Assembly: GCF_055900595.2 (NCBI RefSeq) | Contig: NZ_CM148325.1 | Strand: one strand, 5' to 3' | Length of the DNA: 64,000 nt | Shown: in pieces, positions 47,897-54,574 of the stretch | Layout of the letters: the number at the start of each line of letters is the position of its first letter | Position numbering within the stretch: position 1 is the stretch's first letter | The notes under the pieces: generated by a model | What the model saw: only the letters and a program-made list of their open reading frames with translations | The model's database searches: none | What the model was told of the DNA's origin: nothing | Made by a program: the position numbers and the translations under genes

Positions 47897-48066
47897 AATG
47901 GCTCACTCAAGCTTGCTCACGATTGATTCCAGTAACAAACCGTATTGTGTAATTATTTCTATAGCAGGTCGCTATATAGGCTTGTATATATCGAATAATT
48001 TGAAAATCAAAGAGATATGTAGATTTTCACTCGAAAGTAGTATTACGTGTAAGTGAGGAGTAATTA

Positions 48067-48080
48067 TTGTTCGGTATCAA
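48067..48080 (-). promoter_or_regulatory. FNR box of the dmsA promoter
   Basis: Minus-strand TTGATACCGAACAA (TTGAT-N4-ATCAA-like) about 170 bp upstream of the dmsA start. Confidence 0.55.
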
Positions 48081-48192
48081 AGGGAGACAAAAAAAGCGCC
48101 CGCAGGAGATTTAACGGTACTTACTCCTCTTGCTGATTTCCTTATTTTTCAATAAGTAAACAAAAACAAGGGGAGCAAATTATCACAAATAA

Positions 48193-49197
48193 TTACTGGT
48201 CGATGGACAGTTTATGGACACTTTCAGCCAGCGGATTAAAGCTGATCGCATCCTGTAAAAAGTCCGGTGAAAAATGCGCATACGTCATCGTTTGCTGAAT
48301 CGTGGCGTGACCCAGGATCCTCTGCAACGTGACGATGTTCCCGCCGTTCATCATGAAATGCGTGGCGAACGTGTGCCGCATGACATGCGTGGCCTGCCCT
48401 TTGGGTAAGTCGGGCTTCACCTCCTGAAGGATCTCCCTGAAACTGAGATAATCAACCTGATATAACAGGCCGGTCCGGCGGGTTTTAATTAACGGCACAA
48501 CGGAATCAGCTACAGGAACCGAGCGCGATTTCCCGTTCTTTGTGTTAAAGAACGTCACCCTGTTACCCACGATGTGTTCCCCGCGAAGCGTTGACGCCTC
48601 TTTCCATCTGGCCCCGGTCGAAAGGCACAGAATGGCAATGCGTCGTGCATCACCCTCAAGCCGTTTCAGAAGGCGATCAATCTCGTCATCTGAAAGAAAG
48701 GCCATTTCTGTATTCTGAACCTTGAGTTTACGTATTCCGCGCACAGGGTTTTCGTTATGATAAACCTCCGCGTCAATTAACAACGAAAACATCGCAGATA
48801 AGGCGCACAGGTCGCGATTGATACTGGACGGCATCAGTCCCGCCTGCAACTTATCCGAGCGATACTCAATCACGAATTTTCGTGTCATCTGGCTGGCGCG
48901 CGGGTCCCCCATTTCACGTATCACCTTCTCCAGTCTGGTTCTGTAGGTATCACCATATGCCTGATTACGACCATCAAGCATCCACCACACCTCAATCAGT
49001 TCTGATAACCGCCGTTGATCGGCGGGCCTTGCCTGCCACGGGTTATTGTGGAAATTCTGAAGAACGTATCTTTCGAATTCCTGCGCCTTTGATTTCAGGG
49101 TGAAAATCTTACGAATCCGCCTTCCTCCCGCCCCCTGAGGCCTTACATCAACCTGATAACGTCCGTCTTTGAGTTGCTTAATCGACATGATCAGCAC
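48193..49197 (-). CDS. int: P2-family tyrosine integrase
   Basis: 334-aa ORF; KQLKDGRYQVDVRP.., AILCLSTGARW.. and ATHVMRHTFATHFMMNGGNIVTLQRILGHATIQQTMTYAHF resemble P2 Int as I remember it. Confidence 0.92.
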   Translation of the reverse strand: MLIMSIKQLKDGRYQVDVRPQGAGGRRIRKIFTLKSKAQEFERYVLQNFHNNPWQARPADQRRLSELIEVWWMLDGRNQAYGDTYRTRLEKVIREMGDPRASQMTRKFVIEYRSDKLQAGLMPSSINRDLCALSAMFSLLIDAEVYHNENPVRGIRKLKVQNTEMAFLSDDEIDRLLKRLEGDARRIAILCLSTGARWKEASTLRGEHIVGNRVTFFNTKNGKSRSVPVADSVVPLIKTRRTGLLYQVDYLSFREILQEVKPDLPKGQATHVMRHTFATHFMMNGGNIVTLQRILGHATIQQTMTYAHFSPDFLQDAISFNPLAESVHKLSIDQ

Positions 49198-49257: not shown

Positions 49258-49599
49258 TCAGCCAGCATTGCGGCCTGATTGGGGTGATTTTTGGGTATTG
49301 CGGGTTGAAACCTGATCGTCCTCCGACTGCGTGGAGCCATCAAGAGAGAGAGCCGGGGCGATCTGACCGGCAACAGGTAGCGTCTTATCTTTGATTAGCC
49401 AGAACATATATTTTTCAAACCGATCCACTTGAAGGACGGCCTCAACAATCTTTGCTCTGGCGATCTTTTGCCCTGACTCATAATTCCTGACAGTTGCCAG
49501 AGATAACCCTGTAATATCAGCAAATTGCTTTTGAGTTAGCCCTTCCGTCTTGCGTATCAAACGCAACTTTTTCGCATAGTCTATTGACAAGATACTCAT
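49258..49599 (-). CDS. CI/C-type immunity repressor (HTH)
   Basis: 113-aa ORF; HTH LTQKQFADITGLSLATVRNYESG and C-terminal ..QIAPAL.. resemble the P2 C repressor; divergent from cox; SD AGGAG upstream. Confidence 0.8.
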   Translation of the reverse strand: MSILSIDYAKKLRLIRKTEGLTQKQFADITGLSLATVRNYESGQKIARAKIVEAVLQVDRFEKYMFWLIKDKTLPVAGQIAPALSLDGSTQSEDDQVSTRNTQKSPQSGRNAG

Positions 49600-49702: not shown

Positions 49703-50224
49703 ATGCGGGAGATTATTGCCGACAAAGAGTTATCTGGCGCTCAACCGGTTCAGGATGATGGCGCGGACAATGAATTCATTGAAGCTGCCAACGACAACGA
49801 ACACCTGGAAACCAAAACCAGACCGTCCTACAAAAAGGGCGCAACCCTACGACTGGACGGCCCAGTCGCAGGACTTGTGTCACTGGAAAAAGGGGCTGCC
49901 TATCTGGGGGTAACAAAATCTGCGCTACGCGCCGCCATTCAGCGCGGGCAGATGCCGGGTCACAAAACGCGCTCAAATCCCGAAGATGAAAAGTCAGACG
50001 GTACATGGTGGTTTAACGCCAAAGCCTGGGACGAACTAGCCGACGAACTACTGGAGTGCGAACCGCCAGAGTGGCACAACTGGAAAAGCTACTGGACGTA
50101 CGACCGCAAGAAAAGAAAGTTTTCACCGGCAAACAAGGAGGACTGCCAGACCGTTAAAGGTAAGCAGGTTTACTCCCCCAGAGTTTCAAAACTGGAGCAA
50201 CTCAAAAACAACCAGCCCGGCTAA
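49703..50224 (+). CDS. Cox/excisionase-like DNA-binding protein (long form, 173 aa)
   Basis: ATG with SD AAGAGGA; central HTH-like segment AAYLGVTKSALRAAIQRGQMPG followed by W-rich segment resembling the Cox fold; the N-terminal 55 aa are extra relative to about 90-aa Cox proteins, so the true start may be internal. Confidence 0.55.
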   Translation: MREIIADKELSGAQPVQDDGADNEFIEAANDNEHLETKTRPSYKKGATLRLDGPVAGLVSLEKGAAYLGVTKSALRAAIQRGQMPGHKTRSNPEDEKSDGTWWFNAKAWDELADELLECEPPEWHNWKSYWTYDRKKRKFSPANKEDCQTVKGKQVYSPRVSKLEQLKNNQPG

Positions 50225-52275: not shown

Positions 52276-52758
52276 TTATCGGGAAAAACCGATCGTAATG
52301 GCAGCCATCATCTTTTCAGCGAAAGAGAGAGATTCACGATGACTGATATTCAGAGACATACAGGCTTTGTTGTACGCCACATTTTCCATGCATTCCAGGA
52401 CAGGAGAGTCATGCATCTCAAGCTCTGGAAGGCGTGCCAGCAGAGCTTCCGTACTGAGGAGGGCGCTTTTGGTAATCAACTCATTGTAGCGATGGGCATG
52501 CTCACTCGCCGCCTGCGCACGTTGCCCGAAACGACATATGAAATTACAGGCTCCGAGAACCACCACCACTGCCCCAAGCACCCAGCCGAAATGCCAGCCG
52601 GCTACGATGAACGCACCCGCCGCAAGGATCAAAATGTTGATGATCGCATCAAGGCGACGATTGAATACCGCCGCGATGCGCTCCAGCCAGTAGCTGTACC
52701 AGAGACGGAACATGACCTCATCCCGTTCTCTCGATTTTTTACGTTGGTTGTTTTGCAT
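52276..52758 (-). CDS. reverse-oriented two-TM membrane protein (160 aa), candidate moron
   Basis: Minus-strand ORF with paired hydrophobic helices (AIINILILAAGAFIVAGW / FGWVLGAVVVVLGACNFICRF) flanked by basic residues, SD GAGGG upstream; the overlapping plus-strand ORF 52258..52893 is His/Arg-rich and looks non-coding. Confidence 0.45.
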   Translation of the reverse strand: MQNNQRKKSRERDEVMFRLWYSYWLERIAAVFNRRLDAIINILILAAGAFIVAGWHFGWVLGAVVVVLGACNFICRFGQRAQAASEHAHRYNELITKSALLSTEALLARLPELEMHDSPVLECMENVAYNKACMSLNISHRESLSFAEKMMAAITIGFSR

Positions 52759-52992
52759 GGTGTTTTATCCCTCATCGTCATCGCTCTGCCCCTAATCAGC
52801 GCAGAGTGCAGGGTAACCTGGCTCGTGGAATTTTTGCAGCCAGACATCTTTACCCCCGGGCGTGTTGAACAAAGTGTCCGCCAGATCCACTGAACGGCGG
52901 ATTCATCAATGCTAACACGCCCTTCTTTTCCGGTTGAAGGCGAAAAAACCGGACCATTACCCCGACACAAAACAGAACAACGGAGAACAACT

Positions 52993-53547
52993 ATGCCCGC
53001 ACTTAAACCTATGGGTGTATCAGGTGTACCACCGAAGCATGTCAGAGCCTGGACACAACAGGAAGATGCTCTACTGGTCGGTTTATACCCCTCCCACACC
53101 GTACCAGAACTGACAAAACACTTTCAGAGAACCGGGCCAGCAATACGAAGCCGCATCCGTCTTTTGCTCTCTCAGGGGGTTATCCACACCAAACAACCCC
53201 CCCTGAATACAAAAGAACTCAACACGCTCATCAGGAATCGCCACACAAAAACCATCCGGGAACTCGCGAATGAACTGGGGCGCTCGACATCCACGGTGGG
53301 ACTGAACCTGAGAAAAAGAGGGTACCGGTTCAGGAAATACGGGGAACTCCACCACAGAGCCAGATACAGCGATCACCTGGTGGAGTTGGTAACTGAACTG
53401 CGCGATGAACAGGGGATGACATTCAGCGAAATCAGAAAGTACATCCGGGACACGGCCGGGATATCCCTTAAAAGATGGGTCCTCGCCCGGCTTTACGCAC
53501 GATATACCGCCGCTGACACCGTGCTTTGCGAACTGCTACCGGACTGA
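52993..53547 (+). CDS. putative DNA-binding protein with repeated HTH-like segments (184 aa)
   Basis: Internal ATG of track ORF 52909..53547 with SD ACGGAG; segments ..TIRELANELGRSTSTVGLNLRKRG.. and ..MTFSEIRKYIRDTAGISLKRW.. look HTH-like. Confidence 0.5.
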   Translation: MPALKPMGVSGVPPKHVRAWTQQEDALLVGLYPSHTVPELTKHFQRTGPAIRSRIRLLLSQGVIHTKQPPLNTKELNTLIRNRHTKTIRELANELGRSTSTVGLNLRKRGYRFRKYGELHHRARYSDHLVELVTELRDEQGMTFSEIRKYIRDTAGISLKRWVLARLYARYTAADTVLCELLPD

Positions 53548-53637
53548 GTAACCACTATGCACACACAAAAAAACCGCTTGCCATGCCGCAATCAGTCAGG
53601 TTACATTTCCGCTGCACCTCATAAAACGGGTGCCGGG

Positions 53638-53854
53638 ATTGCAACCCCCGCTGACAACTACAGCGCACAACCGCGCCAGCGGTTTTTTTGTGCGTACCGT
53701 ATCGCCACGTCTTTTTCGCGCCAGAATTATGGCGGGGCGTATGGGGCCGACTTCGGTCGGGCCGGTTTCTGTAGTTGCCGGTGGTTGCAACCCTGTACGT
53801 CTCGCCACCCAGAATTGCAACCTCTGGATGGTGAGTTTTCAAAACTTGCAACTA
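53638..53854. repeat. cluster of four (A/G/C)TTGCAAC(C/T) repeats with a UUCG-loop hairpin
   Basis: ATTGCAACC (about 53638), GTTGCAACC (about 53784), ATTGCAACC (about 53814), CTTGCAACT (about 53845); hairpin GGCCGAC-TTCG-GTCGGGCC at about 53745-53763. Confidence 0.5.
53669..53689 (+). terminator. rho-independent terminator
   Basis: CCGCGCC-A-GCGG stem followed by a T7 run, downstream of the 52993..53547 gene. Confidence 0.55.
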
Positions 53855-53867
53855 CAGAGGCCACACC

Positions 53868-54092
53868 ATGGCAAACCGCAAACAACAGCGCGCATACGCT
53901 GCGCGTCGTCACATCCAGACTGAAATCAACCGCAGACTTTTCCGCGCATTCCGCGTCGCGCATATCATGCACATCAATATGCTGCATGAGCGCAGCCACG
54001 CACTGTCAAACATGTATTCCGCCGCTGTATTCAGCTACCTGGCGGATGACCTGCGCGAGCTGCAGGACCTCATTAACCAGCACCACCACTAA
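53868..54092 (+). CDS. hypothetical small protein (74 aa)
   Basis: ORF MANRKQQRAYAARRHIQTEINRRLFRAF.. with SD AGAGG 7 nt upstream, directly after the TTGCAAC repeats. Confidence 0.4.
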   Translation: MANRKQQRAYAARRHIQTEINRRLFRAFRVAHIMHINMLHERSHALSNMYSAAVFSYLADDLRELQDLINQHHH

Positions 54093-54160
54093 TCAACATC
54101 CCGGAGCCATCCCGCCCCCGTACGCGGGAGGCTTCCGCACGTCCGTTTCCGGAGGTTCTC

Positions 54161-54574
54161 ATGAAGAGCGTTAAGGGACTTTCAGATATTCAGGATTTTT
54201 TTAACTGGATGTGGGCGGTGGATCCACGCCTCGCTTCCCGTCTCAATGACCTGCACGACTATTACCGCCGCGCCTGTAAACAGGCAGCCCGCAGCGCTGC
54301 CACATACGGGGATTTTTCCTTCACCGTTGACGACCGTTACCGCGTGGATGTCAGAGACCAGAACCACAGCCTGGAGCTGGGCCTGTTCCACATCAACGGG
54401 TGCGACAGCAGCGTTATCAGCTGGTCATCGTCAGAAATGGTGCTCGTTCTGGAAATGACCACCCACAGCGTGGTCGTGAAAGGGATTAAAACAGCAGAAG
54501 ACTTTATCGCTGAATACCAGCGCCTTCTTGTGCTGTACCGGGCTGCATTTCAGAAGGCAACAGCAGGGGAGTAA
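54161..54574 (+). CDS. hypothetical protein upstream of gpA (137 aa)
   Basis: ORF with SD GGAGG; ends 5 nt before the gpA start. Confidence 0.55.
   Translation: MKSVKGLSDIQDFFNWMWAVDPRLASRLNDLHDYYRRACKQAARSAATYGDFSFTVDDRYRVDVRDQNHSLELGLFHINGCDSSVISWSSSEMVLVLEMTTHSVVVKGIKTAEDFIAEYQRLLVLYRAAFQKATAGE

Follow-up and report, generated by a model that had tools for sequence, protein, structure and literature searches.

The only studied relative of the protein described here is D5 of phage T5. D5 (T5.118, 255 amino acids (aa)) is annotated in the T5 record as a 'DNA-binding protein; required for DNA replication and late transcription', and the same record places its gene directly upstream of that of the replicative helicase D6. 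The primary paper on D5 is reference 34 of PMC12630848. The second system that bears on this work is the immunity region of the satellite phage P4, in which the CI RNA pairs with seqA upstream and with seqC downstream, leading to premature termination of the replication operon (PMC4825925). Here we analysed a 64,000-nucleotide (nt) stretch of contig NZ_CM148325.1 from assembly GCF_055900595.2, which we call the window, and within it a gene at 52993–53547 (+) in the early operon of a P2-like Escherichia coli prophage. With this analysis, an anonymous 'DNA-binding protein' of P2-like and Mu-like prophages gains a confident structure of three helix-turn-helix (HTH) units and a link to D5. The analysis also delimits the protein: it is not P2 B, and it is not a regulator acting on the adjacent repeats, which belong to a P4-type antisense RNA module.

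A three-unit HTH protein of the D5-like family

The target gene and the parts of its product are as follows.

52982–52985, +, Shine–Dalgarno sequence GGAG, 7 nt 5' of the target ATG, read directly in the sequence
52993–53547, +, target gene, 'DNA-binding protein' with three HTH units, PHROG 323 (PGAP, PHROG, AlphaFold2)
52993–53043, +, N-terminal arm, residues 1–17, with the family-conserved LKPMGxPGxxPxH motif (alignments A1 and A2); modelled as coil at lower confidence, predicted local distance difference test score (pLDDT) 69–76
53044–53190, +, HTH unit 1, residues 18–66, Myb/SANT/GcrA-like, with invariant W20, D25 and R46 (alignment, model, fold match)
53191–53346, +, HTH unit 2, residues 67–118, a duplicate of unit 1 with net charge +9 (model, hhalign, charge)
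53347–53544, +, conserved linker (KxGxxHH), HTH unit 3 and C-terminal helix, residues 119–184 (alignments, model, hhalign)

The open reading frame (ORF) runs from an ATG at 52993 to a stop codon at 53545–53547 and encodes 184 aa. PGAP (NCBI) places an identical coding sequence in 100%-identical E. coli genomes (WP_077248670.1, 'DNA-binding protein'), and comparison with five orthologues gave ratios of non-synonymous to synonymous substitution (dN/dS) of 0.23–0.40, showing that the gene is under purifying selection. The start, the Shine–Dalgarno sequence, the PGAP call and the selection all agree with an earlier annotation made by a model from the letters of the window, hereafter the sequence-only reading, which had described a 184-aa early-operon gene at this position. 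The protein has an isoelectric point (pI) of 10.3 and a net charge of +14, and all 31 aligned family members are strongly basic (pI 9.2–10.5).

The AlphaFold2 model (input alignment of 31 sequences; mean pLDDT 91.2) contains three tri-helical HTH units at residues 22–61, 73–108 and 127–169. The modelled helices span 22–31, 37–41 and 48–61 in the first unit, 73–81, 88–95 and 99–108 in the second, and 127–138, 144–155 and 161–169 in the third, followed by a C-terminal helix. Profile–profile comparison with hhalign matched unit 1 to unit 2 at 98.5% (E 2.4e-15) and unit 2 to unit 3 at 88.6%, with 50% for unit 1 against unit 3. Because units 1 and 2, and units 2 and 3, match by profile, the protein arose at least partly through internal duplication. 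The three HTH-like stretches picked out by the sequence-only reading thus reappear as three units in both the model and the profile comparison.

The protein matched phrog_323, 'transcriptional regulator, D5-like', with E 2.3e-27, residues 5–151 aligning to profile positions 82–230; T5 D5 and a Mu-like homologue matched the same profile with E 1.2e-71 and 6.3e-58, respectively. When the family profile (A2) was compared with T5 D5 using hhalign, the match (96.3%, E 1.8e-9) extended over 142 colinear columns and D5 residues 72–232, covering all three units. Judged by these profiles, the target protein is a member of the same remote-homology family as T5 D5. The two proteins share the colinear three-HTH layout, and both are encoded by early genes adjoining replication genes; DNA binding, which is annotated for D5, is likely for the target. 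By contrast, D5 is longer, having an N-terminal region of about 70 aa without a counterpart in the target (D5 residues 1–71 were unaligned), the two are only ~18% identical, and D5 belongs to a virulent phage with its own replisome, whereas the target sits in a prophage.

An exhaustive HMMER search of 1.84 billion representatives returned 358 relatives. Among the best of these, about two dozen were full-length proteins of ~180 aa, and many others were longer, with 3–9 matched stretches. Longer relatives that we sampled scored on the Pfam models Myb_DNA-binding, Myb_DNA-bind_6 and GcrA. Among 50,697 phage records, tblastn found full-length relatives only in Citrobacter phage Shae_phiSM and in two Mu-like inserts, and our literature searches returned nothing on this family in P2-like phages. 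The target is an uncharacterized member of a known group, the tandem Myb/GcrA-like HTH proteins in PHROG 323, and it already carries a DNA-binding label in the databases.

The best fold matches of the target were the GcrA DNA-binding domain, which was the best structural match, the Tc3 transposase and Myb repeats, and the top Foldseek hits were the Tc3 bipartite domain, the Pax paired domain and c-Myb R1R2R3. The target has the tri-helical Myb/SANT fold with a conserved aromatic core residue in helix 1, and also the fold of the GcrA N-terminal DNA-binding domain. The likeness to both rests on the 'WT..ED..L' first helix of unit 1 with its invariant tryptophan, on the tandem arrangement of the units, and on relatives with 4–9 such repeats that score on the Pfam Myb_DNA-binding and GcrA models. 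The target differs from both in that units 2 and 3 lack the tryptophan and in that it scores under the Pfam thresholds: it had no Myb match at the gathering thresholds of PF00249 and PF13921, whereas a 40%-identical homologue, P0020, passed Pfam Myb (26.2 bits versus 24.4). It had no match to PF07750 (GcrA) and lacks the C-terminal sigma-70-interacting domain, its C-terminal half consisting of two more HTH units. Several HTH units per chain and basic linkers are shared with the Tc3/mariner, IS630 and IS21 transposases and with the Pax paired domain, but the target lacks the catalytic domain of the transposases; its weak NCBIfam matches, to the N-termini of IS630 and IS21 proteins, were far under the family cut-offs.

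A Pfam search had been proposed in the sequence-only reading. It returned generic HTH matches, but none reached its cut-off: the top scores were HTH_24 (20.5 bits; cut-off 21.9) and MerR_1 (20.0 bits; cut-off 21.6), and the best HTH matches fell on unit 2. A sequence search of the PDB gave nothing meaningful, the best hits being designed proteins at E 0.3, a PADLOC scan matched no defence model, and no homology to a characterized non-DNA-binding protein was found; such homology is what the earlier reading had named as counting against it. Kinship with P4 Vis and excisionase-type HTH proteins was rejected, as Vis falls in PHROG 2790 and 66, neither of which was among the target's matches. Homology to P2 gpB was rejected as well: BLASTP gave E 0.5, tblastn found no match in the window or in nine related loci, and gpB belongs to phrog_235, again not among the target's matches. 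The earlier statement that the protein is not obviously homologous to P2 B therefore holds. The B gene itself occurs only within the narrow P2 genus (76 records, with identities of 85% or higher).

The antisense RNA module downstream of the gene

The region between the target gene and the next ORFs contains the following features.

53578–53607, +, sigma-70-like promoter, TTGCCA-18-TACATT, placed to start the isrK-like RNA at ~53614 (sequence pattern)
53614–53689, +, isrK-like RNA, equivalent to P4 seqA, with a1 at 53639–53644, b1 at 53655–53663 and a hairpin at 53669–53684 (Rfam RF01394)
53725–53812, +, C4/CI-type antisense RNA, with b' at 53769–53777 and a' at 53785–53790 (Rfam RF01695)
53815–53860, +, downstream targets, equivalent to P4 seqC, with a2 at 53815–53820 and b2 at 53849–53857 (complementarity, covariation)
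53868–54092, +, 74-aa ORF, homologue of the P4 epsilon derepression protein (PF25738, BLASTP, PHROG)

The sequence-only reading had placed a terminator and a cluster of TTGCAAC repeats directly after the gene, and both are present. The hairpin, followed by a T run, begins ~120 nt after the target stop codon and is the terminator of the isrK-like small RNA; the promoter-like site begins 31 nt after the same stop codon. Four TTGCAAC sites lie within 214 nt (53639, 53784/5, 53815 and 53846). The 64-kb window contains 19 such sites against 15.6 expected, so the motif is not globally enriched, but the local cluster is real. Both RNAs scored above the Rfam gathering scores (isrK, RF01394, 60.1 bits versus 50; C4, RF01695, 80.1 bits versus 45), and the pair was also found in L002, L004 and L008 (L numbers denote loci related to that of the window) and in P4 itself, at the seqA and CI positions. 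The 74-aa ORF matched PF25738 with 27.2 bits (gathering score 27) and P4 epsilon with a BLASTP E of 1e-7, and the two proteins reciprocally match each other's PHROG families (3688 and 10016). Element b2 abuts the ribosome-binding site of this ORF, AGAGG (53856–53860). The complete cassette occupies 53548–54092 in the window, 5199–5749 in L002, 4839–5385 in L004 and 6538–6880 in L008.

Alignment of the intergenic region from four phages showed ~93% identity, with nearly all of the variation falling within the repeats and being compensatory. The paired elements read as follows.

Element a, window: a1 TTGCAA, a' TTGCAA, a2 TTGCAA
Element a, Shae_phiSM: a1 TTGGAA, a' TTCCAA, a2 TTGGAA
Element a, L004: a1 TTACCA, a' TGGTAA, a2 TTACCA
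Element a, L008: a1 TTTCCA, a' TGGAAA, a2 TTTCCA
Element b, window: isrK ACTACAG, C4 CTGTAGT, downstream ACTACAG
Element b, Shae_phiSM: isrK ACCAAAG, C4 CTTTGGT, downstream ACCAAAG

Changes on both sides of the helices numbered five, three and two pairs, and no one-sided change was seen among the four sequences; in slid-register controls, the pairing collapsed. Because the repeats co-vary by compensatory change, the TTGCAAC cluster represents RNA–RNA pairing sites. The reverse complement of TTGCAA is TTGCAA itself, and only for this reason does it resemble a direct repeat. The perfect covariation of the recognition elements among the four phages also implies heteroimmune specificities. This covariation, together with the divergence of the protein's recognition helices beside invariant DNA (described below), rules out the terminator and repeats as operators for the target protein.

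The terminator and repeats form part of a P4-type antisense RNA immunity module, separate from the target gene, that by analogy with P4 would gate the epsilon-like gene and probably gpA. The module follows the P4 immunity region (PLE–seqA–CI–seqC ... epsilon ... alpha) in the order of isrK and C4, in the epsilon homologue downstream and in having the replication gene last. As in both P4 and the P1/P7 c4–icd–ant system, its antisense RNA is complementary to two targets, one upstream and one downstream, and here the pairs co-vary by compensatory change. Unlike in P4, the replication gene is gpA, not alpha, and the host is a P2-like phage of the helper type, which carries the module within its early operon and encodes a protein repressor, C, as well. 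The module is of a known kind (P4 CI/P1 c4) in a less appreciated host. Homologues of P4 kil, eta and orf151 were not found in the window module, and a comparison of P4 ORF151 with the 137-aa ORF showed no similarity. The presence of a P4/P1-type cassette ahead of an epsilon-like gene and gpA in a P2-like phage indicates that P2-like helpers and the P4 satellite share the cassette, which bears on the origin of P4 immunity and on heteroimmunity among these prophages.

A further element may connect this module to transcription from the early promoter. Just after the HTH stop codon, 21 nt at 53561–53581 (+) show 90% complementarity to 53675–53695, where the isrK terminator has its 3' arm and U tract (inverted repeat I1). 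The minimum-free-energy fold of 53548–53700 takes this long-range helix in place of the terminator hairpin (-55.9 kcal/mol, z -5.2), and the isrK RNA alone folds into the hairpin. Folding thermodynamics thus suggests that 53561–53581 could act as an antiterminator, such that transcripts from the early promoter through the HTH gene would read through and transcripts from the isrK promoter would stop. The pairing region is invariant among the phages compared, so covariation lends it no support. A 205-aa ORF at 53557–54174 (+) spans the isrK and C4 RNAs and overlaps the epsilon-like ORF out of frame. Its equivalent is called as a gene in L008–L010 (6547–7164), with a weak Phage_ASH label in L008 and L009; the ORF is probably a spurious call over non-coding RNA.

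Candidate roles of the protein

In each of six P2-like lineages (window/L001, L002, L004, L005–L007, L008–L010 and L014/L015), the gene lies in the early operon, one to three genes upstream of gpA. It is followed by ~320 bp of non-coding DNA or, in L005 and L007, by a PAPS-reductase-family gene. A Mu-like element encodes a homologue (35% identical) in its early region, at a position between gam and mor. The family is also present without the isrK/C4 module, in L005–L007 and at the Mu-like locus L003. In the Salmonella-type relatives L005 and L007 (5045–7547), the HTH gene sits, translationally coupled, between the gene for a D12-class DNA adenine methylase and that of the PAPS-reductase family, and in L015 (2734–4549) it is preceded by a DNA adenine methylase gene (Dam, two genes upstream) and a DUF4406 gene; these neighbourhoods may be DNA-modification modules.

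We compared the target with its divergent homologues in L004, L008, L015 and L005. The putative recognition helices, the third helix of each unit, were only 10–40% identical and were the least conserved segments of the protein, whereas the first helix of units 1 and 3, the linker (residues 109–126) and the C terminus were 38–91% identical. The recognition helices diverge while the adjacent intergenic DNA stays ~93% identical, and the conserved property of the family would seem to be nucleic-acid binding with a constant scaffold or surface, not recognition of the conserved DNA alongside. In P2, the origin of replication lies inside gene A. Pairwise identity of the HTH proteins was uncorrelated with that of gpA (r = 0.31), with many discordant pairs: the window and L002 share 86% identity in the HTH protein and 52% in gpA, and L002 and L008 share 56% and 93%, respectively. 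We therefore rejected allele coupling between the two genes. The divergent recognition helices, the uncoupled gpA and the occurrence of the family without the RNA module indicate that the target gene is an independent mosaic module. Control of the downstream replication genes, put forward in the sequence-only reading, is not supported by these data, as the repeats are RNA pairing elements and the HTH alleles assort independently of the gpA alleles.

The most likely explanation, to which we would give about an even chance, is that the protein is a D5-like early factor that binds duplex DNA and serves as an accessory or architectural component for replication and the early-to-late programme. As a product of the Pe early operon, it would appear soon after derepression or infection, and a single molecule would contact duplex DNA with as many as three HTH units. 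Cooperative binding to duplex DNA and high abundance early in infection are features of D5. Its action in the prophage on replication and the early-to-late programme would be accessory or architectural, as for D5, and would not involve operator-specific regulation of its immediate neighbours. The conservation pattern suggests that the linker, the first helix of unit 3 and the C-terminal helix present a constant surface, perhaps for a protein partner, and that the three putative recognition helices are free to vary.

Several points weigh against this role. The protein falls below the cut-off of every Pfam and NCBIfam model, HTH repeats can inflate profile–profile scores, and the ~70 extra residues of D5 are unmatched. 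The family is absent from P2 and, in the tblastn search of 50,697 phage records, from most sequenced Peduoviridae, and so it is not universally required for P2-type replication. The variable recognition helices fit diversified sequence-specific recognition equally as well as non-specific binding.

A bolder form of the same idea, which we consider unlikely, is that the protein is the temperate-phage counterpart of D5, a monomer that coats or organizes replicating DNA and thereby links replication with the passage from early to late expression in P2-like and Mu-like phages, with the diverging helices providing lineage-specific discrimination between self and competitor DNA. If true, this would offer a molecular handle on the replication dependence of P2-type late transcription.

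The alternative that survives best, although we regard it as doubtful, is a sequence-specific transcription regulator, which generalizes the idea of the sequence-only reading. Its three HTH units would recognize a long asymmetric operator and thereby activate or repress a phage promoter. It might act on the isrK-type promoter immediately after the gene, given that P4 Vis occupies a comparable position upstream of PLE, or on a middle or late promoter. Tandem HTH proteins (Myb R2R3, Pax and Tc3, for example) recognize specific sequences, divergent recognition helices on a conserved scaffold are typical of diversified specificity, the promoter-like site lies close to the target stop codon, and P4 has an HTH gene (vis/ORF88) in the equivalent place upstream of its isrK/C4 region. 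However, the adjacent DNA, including the promoter-like site, stays ~93% identical among loci at which the proteins are 40–85% identical and their recognition helices diverge as described above. In addition, the family occurs at loci without the isrK/C4 module, the target is not homologous to Vis, and the reverse-oriented gene upstream is not conserved.

It is quite unlikely, in our view, that the protein is a host-directed takeover or competition factor that arrests or redirects host functions by binding host DNA, RNA polymerase, a replication factor or another host protein through surfaces diversified in an arms race. The independence of the mosaic module from the immunity region, gpA and neighbouring genes would suit such a factor, as would the presence of the family in unrelated phage types (P2-like, Mu-like and T5-like); GcrA, the best structural match, works with sigma-70, and the conserved N-terminal peptide and C terminus could be protein-binding motifs. 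Nevertheless, the target has neither the sigma-binding domain of GcrA nor a Pfam GcrA match, and its dN/dS points to purifying, not diversifying, selection overall.

Less probable still is a reader or targeting subunit linked to DNA modification, working with a Dam-type methyltransferase, a PAPS-reductase-like enzyme or both, for example through GcrA-like recognition of methylated DNA. The coupling of the gene to both enzymes in L005–L007, the methylase gene upstream in L015 and the resemblance to the GcrA DNA-binding domain would fit this idea, but neither enzyme lies beside the gene in the window prophage, L002, L004, L008 or L014, and the association with modification is therefore not conserved. 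Finally, there is very little chance that the protein substitutes functionally for P2 gpB by recruiting the host helicase to the gpA nick: its gene lies broadly where B does, ahead of A in the early operon with a terminator after it, none of nine loci carrying the target gene has a B homologue, and the D5 gene adjoins a replicative helicase gene and is annotated as needed for replication, but the target has no sequence or hidden Markov model similarity to B, its alleles do not co-vary with those of gpA, and, with B confined to the P2 genus and most Peduoviridae lacking both proteins, a 'replacement of B' is not compelling.

The surrounding prophage and other observations

At 48–58 kb, the window holds the left end of the prophage, which is P2-like (Xuanwuvirus-like). 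Several E. coli chromosomes match the 9-kb stretch with 100% identity. Among sequenced phages, the closest is Shae_phiSM (Peduoviridae, Xuanwuvirus), whose orthologue of the target is 85.6% identical and lies in the same place. The other annotated genes are as follows.

48193–49197, -, integrase (PGAP)
49258–49599, -, HTH repressor (PGAP)
49703–50224, +, Cox-family protein (PGAP)
52276–52758, -, reverse-oriented hypothetical gene, 160-aa membrane protein, phrog_6315 (PGAP, PHROG)
54580–57090, +, replication endonuclease gpA, 32% identical to P2 A (PGAP, sequence comparison)

PGAP places a run of small early genes between the Cox-family gene and the reverse-oriented gene and, after the target gene, two hypothetical genes followed by the replication endonuclease. 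The sequence-only reading had also offered the reverse-oriented membrane gene as something the HTH protein might regulate. This gene was absent from all the other homologue-bearing loci (L002, L004, L005, L008, L014 and L015); elsewhere the HTH gene directly follows other early genes, and the reverse gene is found only in the window's lineage. Its absence from the other loci indicates that it is a lineage-specific insertion, probably a moron, and cannot be a conserved target of the HTH protein, and we therefore discarded it both as a regulated target and as a partner of the target gene. Its product has a central hydrophobic stretch and weak matches to SLATT (E 0.006) and LeoBC (E 0.018), and the gene, which interrupts the early operon, may be a moron or a defence or exclusion gene.

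The Cox-family protein has 173 aa, about twice the length of P2 Cox (91 aa), with the Cox domain at residues 56–129 and N- and C-terminal extensions (phrog_23196). Immediately outside the integrase gene, an Rfam match to the STnc130 small RNA (48000–48121, +; 107 bits), the 5' end of which lies beyond the search range, may mark the attachment site.

Repeats of the Myb type were also seen in other phage proteins. T5.108 (L012, 4546–7332), a putative 'replication origin binding protein', is annotated with IPR001005, presumably the SANT/Myb entry, and with the helicase domain IPR001410. In P0023, an SF2 helicase (ResIII, Helicase_C) is joined to about nine Myb-like repeats, which are of the kind seen in unit 1 of the target. 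Such repeats may recur in phage replication proteins.

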